A DNA stretch of 64,000 nucleotides, taken from assembly GCF_024700885.2 (NCBI RefSeq), contig NZ_CP117016.1. One strand, written 5' to 3'. A program made the position numbers and the translations under genes. Within the stretch, counting starts at the first letter, position 1. Each line of letters opens with the position of its first letter. The notes under the pieces were generated by a model. It saw only the letters and a list, made by a program, of their open reading frames with translations. It ran no database searches and was not told the DNA's origin. This document shows positions 2,331-50,095 of the stretch, piece after piece. This DNA is from Escherichia coli. Its GTDB lineage: Bacteria; Pseudomonadota; Gammaproteobacteria; Enterobacterales; Enterobacteriaceae.

Positions 2331-2579
<249 letters not shown>

Positions 2580-2597
2580 TAGTACCTGTGAAGTGAA

Positions 2598-2627
2598 AAA
2601 TGGCGCACATTGTGCGCCATTTTTTTT
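2598..2627 (+). terminator. rho-independent terminator after lpp
   Basis: Hairpin ATGGCGCACA/TTGTGCGCCAT followed by a T8 run. Confidence 0.7.
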
Positions 2628-2642
2628 GCCTGCCATTTACCG

Positions 2643-3647
2643 CTACTGAGTCGCGCGTAACATATTCCCTTGCACTGGTTCACCATTCTGCGCTGACTCT
2701 ACTGAAGGCGCATTGCTGGCTGCGGGAGTTGCTCCACTGCTCACCGAAACCGGATACCCTGCCCGACGATACAACGCTTTATCGACTAATTTCTGATCTA
2801 CACCCTTATTGTCTTTAAATTGCGTAAAGCCTGCTGGCAGTGTGTATGGCATTGTCTGAACGTTCTGCTGTTCTTCTGCCGATAGTGGTCGATGTACTTC
2901 AACATAACGCATCCCGTTCGGTTCCACGGAATATTTCACCGGTTCGTTGATCACTTTCACCGGCGTTCCCGTCCGCACGCTGGAGAACAAGGCTTTAATA
3001 TCCGGCGCATTCATGCGAATACAGCCCGAACTGACGCGCAAACCGACGCTGTCCGGCGCACTGGTGCCATGAATGAGGTATTCGCCATTACCATGCGCGA
3101 GGCGCAGTGCGTAACGTCCTAGTGGGTTATTTGGCCCGGCAGGAACGACTGGCGGTAATTTAATGCCACGCTCCAGCGAACGCTGACGAATGCCCGCCGT
3201 AGGCGTCCAGGTTGGGTTAGGGATTTTCTGCCCCACACGCGTTTCCATCACTGGCGTTTCCAGCCCCTGCAAACCAATACCTATCGGATAGACCTGCACG
3301 ATATTTTCTCCCGGCGGATAATAATAAAGGCGCAGCTCTGCAAGGTTAACGATAATCCCCTGACGCGGCGCATCAGGTAATAACAGTTGCGAAGGAATAG
3401 TTATCGTCGTACCAGGTTTTGGCACCGGGGCGATAGTGTTATTGGCTTCAAGGATCAACATTGCCGCAGTATCAAAACGACGGGCAATAGCCTGAAGGTT
3501 TTTATCCCCTTCTTGCACCGTATACGTTTGATTTTGCCCAACCAGTCGGCTTCCGGTTGGAGGTAGCGGATAATCAACCGCCCAGGCAGCCTGGATGGCG
3601 CTAAAAGCGCCGATAAGCGTGAGTGTAAGCAAAGACGCGCGTTTCAT
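2643..3647 (-). CDS. ldtE: L,D-transpeptidase (YkuD domain)
   Basis: 334-aa ORF with signal peptide and a C-terminal LD-transpeptidase catalytic region (HGT...SSGCIRM); K-12 synteny (ynhG/ldtE next to the suf operon). Confidence 0.88.
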
Positions 3648-3795: not shown

Positions 3796-4212
3796 TTAGC
3801 TAAGTGCAGCGGCTTTGGCGCGAATTGCGCGAATCATCGCTTCCAGACCTTGTGAACGAGATGGGGTGAGATGTTGGGTCAGCGCCATTTTTTCAAACCA
3901 CGGACGCACATCGAAATTGACAATATCCTGCGGCGTCATCTGATCGTAGAGAATAAAGACGACCGCAATAAGCCCTTTCACAATCGCCGCATCGCTGTCG
4001 CCCTGCAATTCAATAATTCCCTGCGCATTCTGGCGCATGACAATCCACACCTGACTCTGGCAGCCCTGAATGCTATTTTGTGAGCTTCTGTCTTCGGCGC
4101 GTAATTCTGGCAGACGCTGGCCCAGCTCAATAATGTAGAGATATTTCTCTTCCCAGTTGGCGCAGCGTAAAAAATTACGCAGCAATTTTTCTTTATCCGG
4201 CAATAAAGCCAT
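3796..4212 (-). CDS. sufE: cysteine desulfuration sulfur acceptor SufE
   Basis: 138-aa ORF; last gene of the suf operon; matches SufE by recall. Confidence 0.9.
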
Positions 4213-4224
4213 AGTGCCTCCCTG

Positions 4225-5445
4225 TTATCCCAGCAGACGGTGAATACGTTGCAGGCCGGTCACCAGACGATCCACTTCTTCATGGGTGTTATACATGGCC
4301 AGCGACGCCCGACACATCGCAGGAACGTTGTAATAGGCCATTAATGGCATAGCGCAGTGATGTCCGGTACGCACAGCAATGCCGTAATTATCGAGAAAAC
4401 TGCCAACATCATAGGCGTGGTGTTTACCAAGATTAAAAGCAATAACGCCAAGTCTGTTCTGGGGACCATAGAGTGTGAGATCCGGTACAGATTCCAGCTG
4501 TGATAGCGCGTAGTGCATCAGATTTTGTTCATACTCGGCTATATTATTAAGCCCCAGCGCCGACACATACTCCAGCGCCGCGCCAAGACCAATGATGCCC
4601 CCGGTATTGGGTGTACCGGCTTCAAACCGCCACGGTGCTTTGGTCCAGGTAGTGCCTTCACTCAGGCTGACGGTGGCGATCATAGAACCGCCCCCTTCCC
4701 ACGGCGGCATCTCCTGCAACAAGGCTTCTTTGACATAAAGAATGCCAATCCCAGTGGGGCCATACAGTTTATGCCCGGAGAACACGTAAAAATCGCAATC
4801 CAGCGCCTGAACGTCCACCGGATGATGCATCACCGCCTGAGCGCCATCCACCAGTACTTTTGCGCCATGCTGGTGCGCAAGCGTGATCATTTCCGCCAGC
4901 GGATTTTCCGTTCCCAGCACGTTGGAGACATGAGTAATTGCCAGCAGGCGAGTTTTCTCATCGAACAGATTAGGTAGCATCTCCAGTTGCAGCGTACCGT
5001 CGGGGTTGAGCGGGATCACACGCAGCTCTGCGCCAACGCGTGCGCAAAGCATCTGCCAGGGGACAATGTTAGCGTGGTGCTCCATCTGACTGATGATGAT
5101 GTTATCGCCCGCCCGCACATTGCTGTTACCCCAGCTATTGGCGACCAGATTGATCCCTTCCGTCGTGCCGCGGACGAACACCAGCTCTTCCGCCGAACGG
5201 GCATTAATAAACAGCGATGCCCGCTTGCGCACGTTCTCCATTTTCTCGGTCGCCTGGGCGCTTAAGGTATGAATACCGCGATGCACCGCGGCGTAGCCGT
5301 GACGATAAAACTCGGCCTCGGCGTCAATTACCTGGCTCGGTTTCTGCGCACTGGCGGCGCTGTCGAGATAAGCCAGCGGCAAACCGTTTACCTCACGAGA
5401 AAGCACCGGAAAGTCGGCCCGCACTTTGTCGACGGAAAAAGTCAT
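4225..5445 (-). CDS. sufS: cysteine desulfurase SufS (PLP-dependent)
   Basis: 406-aa ORF with a class-V aminotransferase signature ([10 protein letters not shown]) and the active-site Cys region (RTGHHCA). Confidence 0.92.
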
Positions 5446-6713
5446 CTTGCACCTCCTGGCAGTCGTTGACCGATTCGGGCCAGCACCTGCTGTTTAAGAC
5501 CCTCATCACGCAGTGCTTCCGTCAGTTCGGCAGCGAAGGCGTAAATGATCATCTGCTGGGCATCCTGCTGATTGATCCCGCGCGAGCGCAGATAGAACAT
5601 CTGTTCATCATCAATACGCCCCACCGTCGCGCCGTGGCTGCATTTCACATCATCTGCATAGATCTCCAGCTGCGGTTTCGTATCCACCTCCGCCAGTTTG
5701 CCCATCAGCAGATTATTGTTGGTCATCTGACCATCCGTTTTGATGGCGTGCTGCGCGACGTTGATCAGACCGTTAAACACCGCACGGCCTTTGTCGCTGA
5801 CGATAGTTTTGTGCAACTGTCGGCTGTTACAAAAACCTTTATTGTGTTCCAGCCATGTACGGGTATCACACACCTCGTTTTTCACCGGCATCGCCAGGCT
5901 ATTGATCCGCAGCGTGCTGTTTTCGCCATTGAGTTGCGTACTGGTGTTGTGTCGTAACACTGCGCCACCCAGCAGGAAACTGTGGCTAAATGCGGTGGCA
6001 TCGTCAGCCAGCAACAAATCGTTATGGGCAAAGTGGTGACTGAGCGGGTTTTCAAACGCCAGCTTGATATGCTGCAAGTGGGCGTTCGCTGCGATATTGA
6101 TAGTGAACCGTGCCCCGGTAAAATGACGAGCATCATTAAGGCTGACAAAATGTTCGATCACCGTTGCTTCGGCACCTTCCGCCAGATCCAGATGATGTCG
6201 GTAATGGGCAGTGTTGACCTCTTCACCTGCCACGCCCTGGGTAATATGCATTAACAGCAATGGCTTTGCCGGCCGTTGACCGCGCTTCACGGCGATATGC
6301 GTCACGCTTTGCGCCAGGCTTTCCGTCAAATGCAGAAACACTTCCGCCTGAATAGCGTCGGGTAACCCCTGGCGGTCATCGTTAATGCTCACTTCATACC
6401 CGCTGCCTTCAGTCGCATCGCTCAGTGCTGACACGTAACGTCCATCGACAAATACCAGCCGCACAGCGTCTAACGTTAACGCTAAGGCATCTCGCTGCTG
6501 TGGGGATATCTCTCCCGCAATGCAGACAAACTGGCTATTGGTCAGCCCTTCCAGCGGCGTATATTTCCAGTTTTCATGTTTACGTGTCGGCAGTCCGGTA
6601 CGCAGCAATTGTTGTAAATGCTGCTGTGCTTGCGGTGAGCGTTTTGTCCCTTCAGCTTCAAACAAGTGATGCCACTGTTGCAGCGCGTTACTGCTGTTCG
6701 GTAAGCCAGCCAT
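5442..6713 (-). CDS. sufD: Fe-S cluster assembly protein SufD
   Basis: 423-aa ORF overlapping sufS by 4 nt; suf operon synteny. Confidence 0.9.
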
Positions 6714-40059: not shown

Positions 40060-40116
40060 GGTATCCGTTCTGCTGAAGTGTCATGGCGTTGATTTTACGG
40101 TGACTCTTCGACAGTG

Positions 40117-40142
40117 AAAAGAAAAAAGGCCGCAGAGCGGCC
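40117..40142 (-). terminator. rho-independent terminator on minus strand, upstream of btuC
   Basis: Minus strand reads GGCCGC-TCT-GCGGCC then a T6CT4 run. It would stop leftward transcription from the prophage int operon, or is the relic ihfA terminator. Confidence 0.55.
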
Positions 40143-40267
40143 ATAAACACAAGTAAAAATCAATAAGTTAGATAATTATCAAAGACTTACAGACACACAA
40201 AAACACAGCCAACCACAACAAATAACAGGGATGTGGTCACTTTGTGGATCATATCGCCGCCATAAAT

Positions 40268-40708
40268 TTACTTAATAACAGTAACCACAGCCACAAGCAC
40301 GGCCATCGCAGACAGGACAATACCTGTGAGTAACCAAGTCTGATTTGCAAATGATTTCTGAAGTTCAGTACGATGCTCAGCCATCTCAACTTTCAGAGAC
40401 TGGCGTAAATCAGCCATCTCAGACTTCAGGGATTGGCGAGATTCTGCCATCTCAAGCCTCAACCCTTCGCGAATCTCCAGTACATCAGATTTGGTAGCAA
40501 AGGATTCGCTTCTTGTGGTGAGAGTAATCAGGTTGTTTTTGATTTCAGTCACATCACTTTCCAGGCAACTGACCCGCCGTTCAAGGTCGTCATTCATGCC
40601 ATCACCTCCATCATTACCACTTCCTGTTACTTGGTTGTTGGATACATTATAGGCATTCTCTTTCTTTTTTCTGAACCGCGAAATATGTGCAACATTCTCT
40701 GCCATCAC
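40268..40708 (-). CDS. hypothetical tail-anchored coiled-coil membrane protein (prophage cargo)
   Basis: 146 aa; three 11-residue repeats (EMAESRQSLKS / EMADLRQSLKV / EMAEHRTELQK) and a single C-terminal TM helix (WLLTGIVLSAMAVLVAVVTVIK); start overlaps the stop of the upstream gene (ATGA). No family recognised. Confidence 0.55.
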   Translation of the reverse strand: MMAENVAHISRFRKKKENAYNVSNNQVTGSGNDGGDGMNDDLERRVSCLESDVTEIKNNLITLTTRSESFATKSDVLEIREGLRLEMAESRQSLKSEMADLRQSLKVEMAEHRTELQKSFANQTWLLTGIVLSAMAVLVAVVTVIK

Positions 40709-41067
40709 TTCTCATCACCCTGCTTGCCTACCCAGTTCATAAAGGCCCGGGCCGAGTAACGATGAACAAACCCACATCTGTTACAGGTAAGTCGGAATTC
40801 ATAGTTATGGATATTTTCCCGATCATGTCCCTCATATCCCGGATACCCAGTAAATGGACCGATGTAATCAAGCATAACAAAAGTGCCTAAATCACACTCC
40901 TCAGCAGTTTTCGGCTCAGGCCCCACCTCAACAATATTCGTCAAATACATGTACATATCCGTATCGCCACACGACAAACATTTTTCATTCGTAGACGACT
41001 CATTGAGAAAACGCGCAAAATTATCGAGCGTTGCCATTCTTTTAAGCTCATCTAAATGAAACTTCAC
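40705..41067 (-). CDS. hypothetical Cys-motif protein (possible zinc ribbon), prophage cargo
   Basis: 120 aa with CLSC and CNRC pairs; begins 3 nt after the integrase stop. No family recognised. Confidence 0.55.
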   Translation of the reverse strand: MKFHLDELKRMATLDNFARFLNESSTNEKCLSCGDTDMYMYLTNIVEVGPEPKTAEECDLGTFVMLDYIGPFTGYPGYEGHDRENIHNYEFRLTCNRCGFVHRYSARAFMNWVGKQGDEK

Positions 41068-41069
41068 TC

Positions 41070-42047
41070 TTAAGCACCTCCTAGTGGATTAAACCTCACC
41101 GCATCCTGCAGGTAATCCGGCGCAAGATGGGCATAAATCATCGTTGTCTGAATCTTTGCGTGCCCCAGAATTTTCTGGAGCGTGAGAATATTGCCACCGT
41201 TCATCATGAAATGACTGGCGAAGGTGTGGCGCAGCGCATGAACAGCCTGGCCGTCAGGAACATCAGGTGCGACCGTTTTGATGACATCGCGAACCAATGA
41301 ATAATCCAGCGTCGGAAACACCAGTTTCCCGCCCCGTTTTTTGATCTTTTCAAACAGGCTTTCAGAAATAGGAACGGTACGGTTTTTGCTGTTCTTCGTT
41401 TTTGAAAAAGTGATTCGACAATGAAGAACACGGCGCTGCTCCAGTACCGCTACCTCGCCCCATCGCGCCCCGGTCGACAGAAGGATTTCGACAGCCAGCC
41501 GTTCATCGGGATTTTCAGCCAGTGCATCCAGCAACTGAACACATTCAGACTTACTCAGATATCCCATTTCGCGCTCGTTAACCTTCATTCCTTTAAGGCC
41601 TTGAACGGGGTTATCGTTAAGAAAATGGCCGGATGAGATGAGTGCGGTAAACATCGCGCTTAACGCCCCAATCTCTCGATTTATGGTGCTGGGCTGTATC
41701 CCCTGCTCTATCCTGGACACACGTAGCTCGGTGAGCATCGTTGTATTAAGTCTATGCACGCACGGGTCATCCATTGCCTCACTCAAGCGCAGCAATTTAA
41801 GGCGCGTGTTATGCCCTGACTTCATTAGCTGGCCGTGGTATTTCCACCACAAGTCAATAAGCACTGACAGAGGACGGCGATCAATAGAGTTTCCTTTCCA
41901 CTCATTGTTATGCTGTTGCGCCAGCACCCACCGCTCATATAAAACTGCATCCGATTTCGTTTTAAATTTTTTGCGAATGCGTTTGCCTTTACGCCCCTCA
42001 GGGCGCATGTCAAGAAGATACCCTCCCGGAATTGATTTTATGCTCAT
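41070..42047 (-). CDS. int: P2-type tyrosine integrase
   Basis: From MSIKSIPGGY, about 45-50% identical by eye to recalled P2 Int (RPTGRNGKRIRRKF..., LSTGARWGEA, HALRH.F, LGH...TM.YAH). ORF-track start trimmed by 50 codons. Confidence 0.85.
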   Translation of the reverse strand: MSIKSIPGGYLLDMRPEGRKGKRIRKKFKTKSDAVLYERWVLAQQHNNEWKGNSIDRRPLSVLIDLWWKYHGQLMKSGHNTRLKLLRLSEAMDDPCVHRLNTTMLTELRVSRIEQGIQPSTINREIGALSAMFTALISSGHFLNDNPVQGLKGMKVNEREMGYLSKSECVQLLDALAENPDERLAVEILLSTGARWGEVAVLEQRRVLHCRITFSKTKNSKNRTVPISESLFEKIKKRGGKLVFPTLDYSLVRDVIKTVAPDVPDGQAVHALRHTFASHFMMNGGNILTLQKILGHAKIQTTMIYAHLAPDYLQDAVRFNPLGGA

Positions 42048-42096: not shown

Positions 42097-42405
42097 TTAG
42101 CCGGGCTGTGTACCAGTCTTGCGGGGCTTTTGAGAAGACGATGTGTTTTCTGGCCCATCAGGGGAGAGAGAGGGACTGATCTGCCCAGCAGCCTCATTCG
42201 TTTTTCCTGTCATAAGCCAATTCATGTACTTAAAAAAGCGAGGGTGATTAACAATCTTGATAAGCACTTCGCCCCCTATGTTTTCAATCCGCCCCGTTTC
42301 ATAACGACGCAAAGTGCCGATAGGCACATCAATCAGGCCGCAAAATTCTTCGCGCGTTAAATCCTCTGATTCACGAATCACTCTAATTTTTTCACCGATA
42401 AGCAT
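42097..42405 (-). CDS. P2 C-type immunity repressor
   Basis: 102 aa from MLIGEKIRVIRESEDLTREEF; resembles recalled P2 C (…SEKIVLMRKSEYLSRQQL…QTPQFTKYTLWFMT…) in sequence and position upstream of int. Confidence 0.75.
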   Translation of the reverse strand: MLIGEKIRVIRESEDLTREEFCGLIDVPIGTLRRYETGRIENIGGEVLIKIVNHPRFFKYMNWLMTGKTNEAAGQISPSLSPDGPENTSSSQKPRKTGTQPG

Positions 42406-42444
42406 TGACAGTGTTCCTATAAGTACACTAAGCTTGCGCACAAG

Positions 42445-47703: not shown

Positions 47704-48663
47704 ATGAAAATTTGTATCGACGACGGCTCCACCAACATCAAGCTGGCATGGACTGAGAACGGCGAACGCCGCAACGCCATCAGCCCGAACAGCTTCAAGT
47801 CGGAATGGTCTGCGCCGTTCGGTGGCACGCAGCCCGCGAACTACATGCTTGATGGCGTGCGCTATGGTTTTGATCCGGTCAGCGATCGCTTTATCCAGAC
47901 GACCGACACACAATACCAGTACAGCGATGTGAATGTCATTGCCATTCATCACGCGCTGGTCAAATCAGGCATCACGCCACAGGAGGTGGATGTGGTTGTC
48001 ACCCTGCCACTGAGCGAGTATTTCGACACAAACGCACAGCCGGACATGGCCAACATCAACCGCAAAAAAGCAAACGTTATGCGCCCGGTGGAATACCAGA
48101 ACGGCGAAGCATTCACTATCCGTAATGTACGGGTTATGCCTGAATCCATTCCGGCTGGCTTTAAAGCACTGGCTGACATGAGTCCGTTTGAATCCCTGCT
48201 GATTGTGGATTTAGGTGGAACCACGCTGGATGTGGCAAAGGTTCAGGGACAACTGGCAGGTATCAGCCAGGTGTTTTGCGATCCACACGTAGGCGTTTCC
48301 CTGATGGCCGATGCAGTACTGTCGGTGATGGCCACTAACGGTATGCGTACCAGTCACCACATCGCCAATACCATTATCGAACATCGCCATGATGAAGCCT
48401 GGCTGCGCCAGCACATCCACAATGACGCGCATTACGCCAGCCTGATGGCGGTTATTCGTGAAAAGGAAGAAACACTGAAACAACGCGTGATCCGCGCGCT
48501 GGCGGGTTTTTCGGGTTACGGGCGGGTGATGGTTGTCGGTGGCGGGGCGGAGATTGTGGCACCCGCTATCCGCGAAGCCTGCGGAGTTAATGCGACTTTC
48601 ATCGCGGACGGGGTGCCACAGTTTGCTCTGGTTAATGGGCTGTACGCAATGGACAAGGAGTAA
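47704..48663 (+). CDS. ParM/StbA-like actin-type ATPase
   Basis: 319 aa; actin-fold motifs IDDGSTNIKL (phosphate 1), DLGGTTLDV (phosphate 2), VVGGGAE (adenosine); collinear over full length with recalled plasmid R1 ParM (MLVFIDDGSTNIKLQW…YSDVNVVAVHHALL…VMPESIPAGY…DLGGTTLD…GGGAEL). Confidence 0.8.
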   Translation: MKICIDDGSTNIKLAWTENGERRNAISPNSFKSEWSAPFGGTQPANYMLDGVRYGFDPVSDRFIQTTDTQYQYSDVNVIAIHHALVKSGITPQEVDVVVTLPLSEYFDTNAQPDMANINRKKANVMRPVEYQNGEAFTIRNVRVMPESIPAGFKALADMSPFESLLIVDLGGTTLDVAKVQGQLAGISQVFCDPHVGVSLMADAVLSVMATNGMRTSHHIANTIIEHRHDEAWLRQHIHNDAHYASLMAVIREKEETLKQRVIRALAGFSGYGRVMVVGGGAEIVAPAIREACGVNATFIADGVPQFALVNGLYAMDKE

Positions 48664-48667
48664 ACCA

Positions 48668-48979
48668 ATGACGACACCAACCAGGCGGATAAGTTTCTAT
48701 CTGAAGCCTGCGGCCGTCAAGAACGAAAGCGAAGCATGCGCCTGGCTGGACAGCCTTACACCGGAAGCCCGCAAAAGCGGCCAACGCGTGGCTTTTCTGG
48801 CCGGGCTGGCACTTCTGAAAATGAATCCGGCAGAGGCTTACCGACTGGCTGCATGGGCTGACGATGAGGCGTTATCAGTGACACAAACCAGGACAGAACG
48901 CCCCCTGTCACAGCCAGTACCAACCGCACAGATAACCAGTCAGATGGCCGGAAATATCAGGGCGTTATTTCCTGAATAA
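48668..48979 (+). CDS. ParR-like DNA-binding adaptor
   Basis: 103 aa from MTTPTRRISFYLKPAA...; N-terminus resembles recalled R1 ParR (RRTIAFKLNPDV…LDSIP.GERS…AALTAGLALY); starts 5 nt after the parM-like stop. Confidence 0.65.
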   Translation: MTTPTRRISFYLKPAAVKNESEACAWLDSLTPEARKSGQRVAFLAGLALLKMNPAEAYRLAAWADDEALSVTQTRTERPLSQPVPTAQITSQMAGNIRALFPE

Positions 48980-48986
48980 CACAACG

Positions 48987-49006
48987 TCAGGGCGAGTTCG
49001 CCCTGA
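48987..49006 (+). terminator. hairpin TCAGGGCGA-GT-TCGCCCTGA after the parR-like gene
   Basis: Perfect 9-bp inverted repeat; no strong T-run, so terminator function is tentative. Confidence 0.35.
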
Positions 49007-49042
49007 TCTCCATCTCAGAACATAAACAAGAAGAGCGACTTA

Positions 49043-49426
49043 ATGAGCAAAATCAACTATCAGGCATTACGTGAACGTTATTCACCTGCACCAGTACCAA
49101 AATGCCCTATTTGCTGCGAAGAAATGTCAATTCAGCGAATATCTGGAGCACAGGTTGTTTATGGCTGCTCCGGTTATGGTGATGATGGAGATTTCAAAAT
49201 TGGTCGAACTCTTGCCGACGAACATTATGAAAAATCACGCGTAACAGTGTTGGATGTCGGGGATCCTGAAGTATTGGCGCTACTTGATTGGCTGGAAACC
49301 AAAGACAACCGAATCGCTGAACTGGAAAAAATCGCCACTGACTATGCACTTAAATTCCAGAAAGCACAGGACGCATTAAAGTACGCCGCTTTGCTGCATA
49401 GCAGGTCAGCGCAGCTACAAGACTAA
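49043..49426 (+). CDS. hypothetical protein with N-terminal Cys motif (CPICC...GCSGYG) and C-terminal coiled coil
   Basis: 127-aa ORF; lower GC than the phage backbone by eye; no family recognised. Confidence 0.5.
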   Translation: MSKINYQALRERYSPAPVPKCPICCEEMSIQRISGAQVVYGCSGYGDDGDFKIGRTLADEHYEKSRVTVLDVGDPEVLALLDWLETKDNRIAELEKIATDYALKFQKAQDALKYAALLHSRSAQLQD

Positions 49427-49454
49427 CTTAAAGCGGAAGATTAATACATGGTGA

Positions 49455-49481
49455 GTCGGGGTAATTTGTTTTTATCCCGAC
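49455..49481. terminator. bidirectional terminator hairpin between convergent island genes
   Basis: GTCGGG...CCCGAC stem with a T-rich loop and flank, between the plus-strand 127-aa gene and the minus-strand membrane gene. Confidence 0.45.
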
Positions 49482-49516
49482 AAATAAACAAAAAAGTGGA
49501 CTATCTCTGTAGTATC

Positions 49517-50047
49517 TTATTCAGCATCGTCTCGTGCAGTCTGTGCATACGTCACAACAACGCCCAATGCATTAGTTTTCTTTTCAACATAGATAATATT
49601 GTCATATTCATAGTTACCATACGGATAGCAAATAAGAATATTTTTATGCAGATCGGGATCATCAACAAACGCTCCGGAACAGCTTCTTGAACTACCGGAT
49701 GTATACTCATACGGTGCAACATATGATGATGTTACTCCTGGTAAAAAATAAGTCACCATCATAAGAGGGATAATCAGGAATATCCCTGTAAGAATGCAAG
49801 AGCCAGCATAAACCTTCAGGTATTCCGACAGTCCTTTCCAGCCACTTTGCTTCACTACCCCCCTCTTCACCAGAAACAAGGAGAAGAAAAAGGACATACC
49901 CATACTACATAAGATGTAATAATTGGATATACGCGAATTAAGATATGTAATCCTGTAGATATCTGCCCTCCACCAGTAAAAGAGGAAAATAATCCCTAGC
50001 ACTGAAACAGTCATGCAAATCAAATAAGGATATGAATCTTTCTTCAT
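49517..50047 (-). CDS. hypothetical low-GC integral membrane protein (moron-like)
   Basis: 176 aa; three predicted TM segments (YLICMTVSVLGIIFLFYWW, YYILCSMGMSFFFSLFLV, CILTGIFLIIPLMMVTYFL) then a roughly 70-aa soluble C-terminal domain; markedly AT-rich compared with flanking phage DNA (by eye). Confidence 0.6.
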   Translation of the reverse strand: MKKDSYPYLICMTVSVLGIIFLFYWWRADIYRITYLNSRISNYYILCSMGMSFFFSLFLVKRGVVKQSGWKGLSEYLKVYAGSCILTGIFLIIPLMMVTYFLPGVTSSYVAPYEYTSGSSRSCSGAFVDDPDLHKNILICYPYGNYEYDNIIYVEKKTNALGVVVTYAQTARDDAE

Positions 50048-50095
50048 GTCTTGCGCTCATTAAAATTTCCCTGCTACGAACAAATTTACCATCCG

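Follow-up and report, generated by a model that had tools for sequence, protein, structure and literature searches.

A mobile two-gene cassette between the integrase gene and the attachment site of a P2-like Escherichia coli prophage: a candidate inter-phage conflict system

We examined a 64,000-nucleotide (nt) stretch of an Escherichia coli chromosome (NZ_CP117016.1; the window, below), and in particular two small genes, here called ORF-A and ORF-B (for open reading frame), that lie in it between the integrase gene (int) of a prophage and the attachment (att) site at which the prophage joins the host DNA. The window is 100% identical over its entire length to E. coli MLI114 (NZ_CP117013.1). 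Its positions 1–40142 are ordinary core chromosome, running from pykF through the suf, ydi, aro, pps and nlpC genes to btuDEC, and identity to 5425 other E. coli genomes ends at 40142, directly 3' of the hairpin GGCCGCAGAGCGGCC. The prophage is a complete 34-kb P2-like element (Peduoviridae) with replication gene A, portal, terminase and capsid genes, a lysis cassette, tail genes and ogr. Read along the minus strand, the order is C repressor, int, ORF-A, ORF-B, a 125-nt AT-rich arm, attL and then btuC.

In uninfected strains the hairpin GGCCGCAGAGCGGCC is the ihfA terminator, which lies 18 nt past ihfA and upstream of btuC, and it is at this terminator that the prophage has inserted. The 25-bp att core, AAAGAAAAAAGGCCG(C/G)AGAGCGGCC, occupies 40118–40142 as a duplicate of the ihfA terminator, and MLI114 has a second copy, with one mismatch, that adjoins ihfA at a distance of about 34.4 kb; because the 25 bp recur next to ihfA at the other prophage end, we take 40118–40142 as the core of attL and thus as the left prophage/host junction. 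On the minus strand the same bases form an intrinsic terminator (40128–40142), with the hairpin GGCCGCTCTGCGGCC of six G-C pairs followed by a T-run (tail TTTTTTCTTT). Between the ORF-B stop codon and the att core are 125 nt of AT-rich, non-coding phage DNA (40143–40267; guanine-plus-cytosine (GC) fraction 0.34), which are absent from the empty ihfA-btuC site and are presumably the attP arm. The original prediction, made from the sequence alone, had placed two same-strand genes behind int at the prophage/host junction and had regarded them as an insertion relative to P2. Both genes are present on the minus strand, and comparison with the type phage bears out the insertion: in P2, int is followed by a gene-free 273-bp gap (attP) and then ogr, and neither P2 nor Wphi has a gene in this slot, whereas here 800 bp of coding sequence separate int from the att core.

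Upstream of the pair lie the lysogeny genes of the prophage. A C-type helix-turn-helix immunity repressor (42097–42441, or from 42405 with the RefSeq start; minus strand; phrog_147, E 3e-31), presumably the first gene of the lysogenic operon, is followed after 49 nt by a P2-family tyrosine integrase (41070–42047, minus strand; 325 aa from the RefSeq ATG; phrog_1, E 5e-71) that is about 49% identical to the Int proteins of P2 and Wphi. The int stop codon (TAA, 41072–41070) and the GTG start of ORF-A at 41067 are separated by 2 nt, not by the 3 nt first counted, and the Shine-Dalgarno (SD) sequence of ORF-A, read as AGGAGG at 41077–41082 on the minus strand, falls within the last int codons. The ORF-A stop codon (TGA, 40707–40705) in turn overlaps the start of ORF-B within GTGATG, either by 4 nt (GTGA) if ORF-B begins at the GTG at 40708 or by 1 nt if it begins at the ATG at 40705, which is the RefSeq choice. 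The ATGA overlap originally proposed is thus GTGA/TGATG in this prophage, and a literal ATGA is usual in the homologues. Strong SD sequences and overlapping stop and start codons couple ORF-A to int and ORF-B to ORF-A. The original prediction also noted a GC content that appeared lower than in the phage core, and it is lower: the GC fraction is 0.435 in ORF-A and 0.447 in ORF-B, as against 0.493 in int and 0.529 in the prophage part of the window.

A scan of the minus strand from C to attL found no convincing terminator before the attL copy of the ihfA terminator, which is the first strong one downstream of C-int-A-B; two other candidates upstream of attL are weak and lie inside the coding sequences of int and ORF-B. 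In P2 the genes C and int make up an operon, Pc, that is active in the lysogenic state. By analogy, the A-B pair would be transcribed in lysogens as the tail of a C-int (Pc) operon.

ORF-A (40705–41067, minus strand; RefSeq WP_000668483.1) encodes a soluble, acidic protein of 120 aa (isoelectric point (pI) 5.1) that matches the hidden Markov model (HMM) of phrog_4293, a family of unknown function, over its full length (E 3.4e-30, residues 2–120). The A alleles from O26, P15-25 and Rahnella match the same model, and all A-like proteins belong there. The length given for this product in the original prediction was right, but the "Cys-pair" label fell short, as the protein has two CxxC pairs, C30/C33 and C95/C98. 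Since these four cysteines are invariant, we read ORF-A as a four-cysteine zinc ribbon. In an alignment of 15 sequences the invariant residues are C30, C33, C95, C98, G99, W112 and L21, with F17 nearly so (and invariant in an alignment of 11 A-B pairs). On its N-terminal side the ribbon is flanked by a conserved helix (T-P-x-x-F-x-x-F-L), on its C-terminal side by another, and an acidic tail ends the protein. The AlphaFold model has a predicted local distance difference test score (pLDDT) of 70, with a poorly predicted stretch of roughly 45 residues from one zinc knuckle to the other. Here lies a hypervariable loop (aa 37–85; 40813–40959, minus strand), delimited by low pLDDT, by the ratio of non-synonymous to synonymous substitution rates (dN/dS, or omega) and by a dip in nucleotide identity.

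Relatives of ORF-A are few: an exhaustive HMMER search of 1.84 billion proteins returned only 16 cluster representatives, and a second word-index search with the ORF-A profile yielded next to nothing new. HMM scans gave no significant Pfam, NCBIfam or PADLOC family, and a Foldseek search of AFDB50 returned uncharacterised proteins only, from Enterobacterales, Aeromonas, Bordetella, Cupriavidus and others. There is a weak Foldseek resemblance (E 7e-3) to zinc-ribbon antitoxins of the YgiT/MqsA type, and the AlphaFold database lists an ORF-A with 99% identity under S. Typhi CT18. The homology and structure searches called for at the outset thus placed the two proteins in PHROG families of unknown function, and ORF-A has no characterised relative. 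Our search of the literature returned nothing on this gene pair.

ORF-B (40268–40705 on the minus strand for the 145-aa form with ATG 40705, or 40268–40708 for the 146-aa form with GTG 40708; RefSeq WP_000829983.1) was described in the original prediction as a 146-aa coiled-coil protein with 11-residue repeats and a C-terminal transmembrane (TM) anchor, a description that stands apart from the choice of start. It matches the HMM of phrog_9415, whose function is likewise unknown, over residues 2–141, including the N-terminal extension (E 1.3e-42). The protein begins with a variable peptide of about 27 residues and a glycine-rich linker (GSGNDGGDG) leading to Met37. The coiled coil starts at (D/E)-x-L-E-(K/R)-R-V-x-x-L-E-x-D-V and continues through S-E-S-F-A-T-K-S-D-V into 11-residue repeats, a Q-T-W motif and a terminal hydrophobic helix. 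The repeats (LRLEMAESRQS and similar) are encoded by 2.4 copies of a 33-nt tandem repeat (40377–40455, minus strand; Tandem Repeats Finder, period 33), and homologues contain anywhere from about 0 to 7 of them. The terminal helix, LTGIVLSAMAVLVAVVTVI (aa 126–144; 40274–40330, minus strand), is the single TM helix of the protein; its mean Kyte-Doolittle value is 2.65 over 19 residues, and only K145 follows it.

Several lines of evidence place ORF-B near known families of membrane-anchored coiled coils. The segment F-A-T-K-S-D (aa 69–74; 40484–40501, minus strand), which is conserved in homologues, matches the beta-layer consensus [aliphatic]-A-T-K-[polar]-[D/E] described for the trimeric, membrane-anchored coiled coils of the DUF1640 family (Hartmann et al., PMC4786415), and in the AlphaFold model the helix breaks exactly at this motif, at aa 68–71. 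A profile of 13 ORF-B relatives, searched against the PDB, matched solved trimeric coiled-coil constructs (best 7o92, E 3e-5), including the Tcar0761 beta-layer constructs and, weakly, 6h9l. Three of the 13 relatives match the Pfam CCDC90-like/DUF1640 family (PF07798) at E ≤0.001 (best 3.5e-8) and two match haemolysin XhlA (PF10779; best 3.7e-6), while the ORF-B of the window itself is below threshold for PF07798 (E 0.064–0.066) and does not match PF10779. RefSeq names the O26 allele "DUF1640 domain-containing protein". ORF-B shares with the DUF1640/CCDC90-like proteins (PF07798; MCUR1, CCDC90B) the C-terminal TM anchor, the coiled-coil stalk and the FATKSD beta-layer motif, but it lacks a globular N-terminal head, having only the disordered peptide of about 27 residues and the Gly-rich linker (pLDDT about 30), and both its separate ORF-A partner and its internal start are foreign to DUF1640. 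XhlA, from the lysis cassette of the Bacillus prophage PBSX, is a membrane-active phage protein that likewise combines a small N-terminal coiled coil with a C-terminal TM helix, yet it is encoded among lysis genes and has no zinc-ribbon partner. ORF-B is thus a peripheral relative of both DUF1640/CCDC90-like proteins and XhlA. We expect it to insert into the inner membrane by its C-terminal helix, with a trimeric alpha/beta coiled-coil stalk in the cytoplasm. In Salmonella lambdoid prophages the ORF-B versions carry a periplasmic (PA)n tail after the TM helix (L036 5377–5931, L037 5377–5907, L038 about 5377–5900), whose length depends on the strain, at about 10, 13 and 17 PA units.

Annotations of ORF-B are split between 145 and 109 aa, and the 109-aa form (P0023) is present in 3449 blocks of the protein collection. 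The alternation is explained by a start signal internal to the gene: GGAGG (40609–40605) precedes the ATG of Met37 (40597–40595) by 7 nt (the feature spans 40595–40609, minus strand) and is the predicted start of a 109-aa isoform. The SD sequence is spelled by the glycine-linker codons. Among 12 divergent alleles, GGAGG stands 7 nt before the conserved internal ATG in eight and 4 nt before it in one, and the remaining three have GGGGG or GGAG; the feature is shared by the window and by L003, L006, L014, L019, L020, L022, L023, L026, L028, L032 and L035. The long frame is open as well, overlapping the ORF-A stop codon in all 12 alleles with a located Gly-Met motif, down to about 25% identity, and it is also open in the P15-25 and L036 alleles; dN/dS over aa 1–36 is 0.22–0.53. 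ORF-B is therefore probably made as two isoforms, a predicted long form coupled to ORF-A and a predicted short one starting at Met37. A promoter-like site also lies within the N-terminal coding region (40646–40675, minus strand: TTCAGA, 18 nt, TATAAT; 10 of 12 matches). We rejected it as an internal promoter for the short form, as the TATAAT, 39–48 nt upstream of Met37, occurs in the close clade only, where it is spelled by Tyr-Asn codons, and we record it simply as a lead.

To see how constant the pair is, we compared int-att junctions. The integrase of this prophage (≥95% nucleotide identity) occurs in 296 of 5426 complete E. coli genomes, and the slot behind it is occupied in strikingly different ways. 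The window-type pair is found in 85 of the 296 genomes. Another 23 carry an O26/O145-type pair, with a 166-aa ORF-A that is 21% identical and a DUF1640 ORF-B that is 35% identical; 16 combine the O26/O145-type ORF-B with yet other ORF-A alleles; and 17 have the O139 P15-25-type pair (127 aa and 99 aa). Very divergent A/B alleles other than the window type account for about 40–56 of the 296 genomes. In 158 genomes, E2348/69 and O104:H4 among them, the slot holds instead an unrelated single 131-aa gene of phrog_14142. Prophages with the same integrase thus carry at least four very divergent A alleles and three B alleles, or the 131-aa gene; about half of otherwise similar prophages lack the A-B pair, and no empty slot was seen in this integrase lineage among the 296 E. 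coli genomes. The pair is accordingly not a universal part of the integration module, the condition under which the original prediction would have fallen, and at least 125 of the 5426 genomes (about 2.3%) carry an allele of the cassette at this one site. The 131-aa occupant is an acidic protein whose family is of unknown function (WP_000416304/8; L001 3350–3745, L025 2082–2477).

The cassette is by no means confined to this site. ORF-A and ORF-B are conserved jointly in Escherichia, Salmonella, Klebsiella, Rahnella and other Enterobacterales, and the pair stands behind int at at least four different att sites, including the yhbY/rlmE site and one beside prc/proQ. In another prophage, beside mntH-type genes, an extra 278-aa gene precedes it, and a P2-like genome that is episomal in Klebsiella has it between int and the D/ogr end. 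Other copies have no integrase nearby. A Rahnella Rac-like prophage and Salmonella lambdoid prophages carry the pair directly downstream of a cI-type repressor, opposite cro/cII; a myovirus has it between the tape-measure gene and a DNA-circulation gene, within a cluster of tail genes; and in ST101-KPC2phi6.1, a Klebsiella phage of 48 kb, it lies upstream of the tape-measure gene. A and B occurred as a pair in all the phage contexts that we read, and a single A-like gene without B lay outside any recognisable prophage. A megablast search of the region against the phage collection found no match, and nor did tblastn with the ORF-B of the window and of Rahnella, probably because the low-complexity filter masks the coiled coil. 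The pair thus moves horizontally as a self-contained unit of two genes (phrog_4293 plus phrog_9415-like). Its gene order, cI-A-B in lambdoid prophages and C-int-A-B here, is as order compatible with co-transcription with the repressor, and because the cassette is attached to cI in the lambdoid prophages as well, this is independent support for a function expressed in lysogeny. We have little doubt that the pair is a real, lysogeny-linked accessory cassette. The P2-like prophage L026 has a VasI-domain gene between C and int (2494–3111) and a 278-aa membrane-looking gene between int and A-B (4111–4947), so that the lysogeny operon accumulates several cargo genes.

Both genes are under purifying selection, with dN/dS values against four other alleles of 0.11–0.61 for ORF-A and 0.10–0.33 for ORF-B (0.05–0.12 for int), and the genes, their order and their coupling are conserved across genera down to about 25% identity. 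Of the two partners, ORF-A changes the faster. Between L007 and the window, nucleotide identity is 93–100% in int and ORF-B and 45–85% in ORF-A. In STEC388 and O26, which share an int whose product is 98.5% identical to the Int protein of the window, ORF-B is 98% identical and the ORF-A proteins are 30% identical. Identity falls at the ORF-A loop, while int and ORF-B stay above 93%, and in the closest pair, the window and L003, the loop (aa 37–85) has 22.7 non-synonymous and 3.3 synonymous substitutions, giving an omega of about 2 (flanks 0.1–0.4) that derives from 26 substitutions in a single allele pair and could be explained by a recombination patch. Since an ORF-B that is 98% identical is paired with ORF-A proteins that are 30% identical, the variable face of ORF-A does not seem to be the ORF-B interface. 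These data suggest that this face tracks something that itself changes fast, although the counts are small and recombination could contribute. We picture ORF-A as a cytoplasmic protein that would bind ORF-B through its conserved helices and ribbon and expose the hypervariable loop.

The nearest analogy for such an arrangement is RexA/RexB of phage lambda. In both cases two genes are joined to a prophage repressor, and the lambdoid homologues of our cassette lie exactly downstream of cI, in the rexAB position; in both, one component is soluble and the other membrane-bound, so that a logic of sensor and membrane effector is plausible. There is no similarity of sequence or fold, and no significant PADLOC, Pfam, PHROG or NCBIfam match links either ORF to RexA or RexB: RexB is polytopic, with four helices, whereas ORF-B is a single-pass, tail-anchored coiled coil, and RexA has 279 aa and no zinc ribbon, whereas ORF-A has 120 aa and a zinc ribbon. 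Mycobacteriophage Sbash gp30/gp31 is a prophage pair functionally similar to RexAB. In SieB-Esc of P22 and lambda and in holin/antiholin genes, one frame with an internal start gives two products, one of which modulates the other. The two predicted in-frame starts of ORF-B recall these genes, differing in that ORF-B shows no homology to them and has one TM helix.

The architecture, linkage, mobility and allele turnover of the cassette described above are observations; from them we infer an anti-phage function. We suggest, with a rough probability of 0.42, that A-B may be a Rex-like or toxin-antitoxin-like exclusion module directed against phages. ORF-A would hold the XhlA/DUF1640-like membrane protein ORF-B inactive, docked through its conserved elements. 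When a phage superinfects the cell or another mobile element enters it, a component of the invader would engage the variable loop of ORF-A, and ORF-B would then be released or re-arranged, perhaps in a manner tuned by the ratio of long to short isoform. ORF-B might next perturb or damage the membrane, so that the invader would be aborted or excluded and the lysogen population, and with it the prophage, would be protected.

Several findings weigh against this proposal. Neither protein has a meaningful match in PADLOC-DB v2.0.0, where the hits are at chance level or to coiled coils only (Cas12a, 0.03; the coiled-coil regions of LmuB and ZorA), and the genes that alternate with the pair at the slot match no known defence genes either. 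An AlphaFold model of an ORF-A-(G4S)6-ORF-B fusion, built with 11 paired sequences, gave no confident contact between A and B (pLDDT 58) and is uninformative either way, so that their interaction is assumed from conserved linkage alone. Pc transcription through int is carried over from P2 biology, and the elevated omega of the loop has the narrow basis given above.

Of the other explanations, the one that survives best, though we think it unlikely, is an addiction module resembling a toxin-antitoxin system, with ORF-B a membrane toxin and ORF-A its labile antitoxin, in which loss of the prophage would kill the cell and other phages would play no part. It would account for two small overlapping genes with an acidic first product (pI 5.1) and a membrane-bound second, it would suit the faint YgiT/MqsA-like fold of ORF-A, and a hok/gef gene is present in the same prophage on the other side of the att site. 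PADLOC, Pfam and NCBIfam scans of both proteins found no toxin or antitoxin family, however; toxin and antitoxin partners co-vary, yet nearly identical ORF-B proteins are here paired with ORF-A proteins of 30% identity; and the cassette usually has no obvious promoter of its own, riding instead on lysogeny operons.

A conversion of host physiology unrelated to phages is less probable again. ORF-B would then be a protein of ElaB/YqjD-like layout (stress- or ribosome-associated) or an MCUR1/CCDC90B-like scaffold, with ORF-A as its regulator, and both the DUF1640 relatives of this tail-anchored coiled coil and expression from the lysogenic operon, which would suit any conversion gene, fit such a role. 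The extreme diversification of alleles, the replacement of slot contents and the hypervariable loop are more typical of conflict systems, and Pfam scans of ORF-B and its relatives revealed no similarity to the ElaB/DUF883 family.

The XhlA matches in two of 13 ORF-B relatives, the dual-start layout reminiscent of holin and antiholin, and the presence of the cassette in a myovirus tail-gene cluster and upstream of another phage's tape-measure gene raise the idea that the pair serves accessory lysis, or its timing, in the phage's own lytic cycle, with ORF-B acting like XhlA or a dual-start holin/antiholin under the control of ORF-A. We consider this improbable: a full set of P2-type lysis genes is already present in another part of the prophage (holin, M15 endolysin, LysB-like and LysC), the pair is attached in P2-like and lambdoid prophages to a repressor/integrase operon that is off in lytic growth, and about half of otherwise similar prophages do without it.

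A factor for integration or excision, that is, a directionality factor or a regulator of Int in this integrase lineage, would explain the translational coupling to int, the position behind integrases at several att sites and the lack of empty slots in the lineage. There is very little to be said for it otherwise, since an integrase at least 98% identical works with the unrelated 131-aa gene in 158 genomes, the cassette also occurs without an adjacent integrase, behind cI and among or next to tail genes, the position is vacant in P2 and Wphi, and a membrane anchor is unexpected in a recombination factor. That these are spurious or decaying ORFs without function, as their annotation only as hypothetical proteins and the disputed start of ORF-B might hint, is refuted by purifying selection on both genes, by the persistence of the coupled gene pair, in unchanged order, across genera at identities as low as about 25%, and by the invariant cysteines.

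An exclusion module in the int-att slot would add to what is known of variable loci in P2-like phages. Like the P2 loci next to cos (old/tin) and at Z/fun, the int-att slot holds frequently replaced cargo between conserved P2-like genes, but the A-B cassette lies between int and att and not between the replication gene and cos/portal. The published variable hotspot of E. coli P2 elements adjoins cos (Rousset et al. 2022, PMC9122126), and in the passages searched that article makes no mention of the int-att slot or of the A-B cassette. The cos-adjacent slot of the present prophage (47704–50092, from replication gene A to the portal gene) contains ParM, a partition/stability gene, an ead/Ea22-like fragment and a frameshifted ORF, and coincides with a dip in GC fraction to 0.41 at 49–50 kb.

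Some further features of the prophage deserve record. A Hok/Gef-family toxin gene lies between ogr and attR, past the right end of the window (L034 4490–4630; 2431489–2431629 in the MLI114 record), so that the att site is flanked by cargo on either side. The prophage D gene (VgrG/Pvc8-family) looks truncated and adjoins a 1155-nt ORF on the opposite strand. An Rfam scan gave two hits in all, both sub-threshold, and one of them is to the enterobacterial small RNA (sRNA) STnc540 at 40060–40183 on the minus strand (23 bits against a gathering score of 38). This match covers the btuC leader, the ihfA terminator and the first phage bases; were it a genuine sRNA of the ihfA 3' untranslated or intergenic region, insertion of the prophage would split it.

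The cassette is common and is annotated everywhere as hypothetical. It occupies the repressor operon, the most privileged position that a prophage offers an accessory gene, and its alleles turn over as expected of conflict genes. The conversion or defence moron envisaged in the original prediction is plausible, and as a possible new system of conflict between phages, compact in size, the pair makes a good if unproven candidate. More tentatively, A-B may represent a widespread and unrecognised family of prophage anti-phage or anti-satellite systems, in which a hypervariable zinc-ribbon sensor is joined to a two-isoform, trimeric, tail-anchored effector and alleles are exchanged at slots in the lysogeny operons of P2-like and lambdoid prophages; the int-att junction would then be a further hotspot of conflict beside the cos-adjacent one. 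Should the exclusion reading prove false, the cassette would still be a clear-cut case of a mobile moron in which one gene probably has nested starts. If it is true, a new and very compact system of about 800 bp would join those already known, a function could be given to the bacterial tail-anchored coiled coils of DUF1640/XhlA-like type, and more systems could be sought at the int-att junction.

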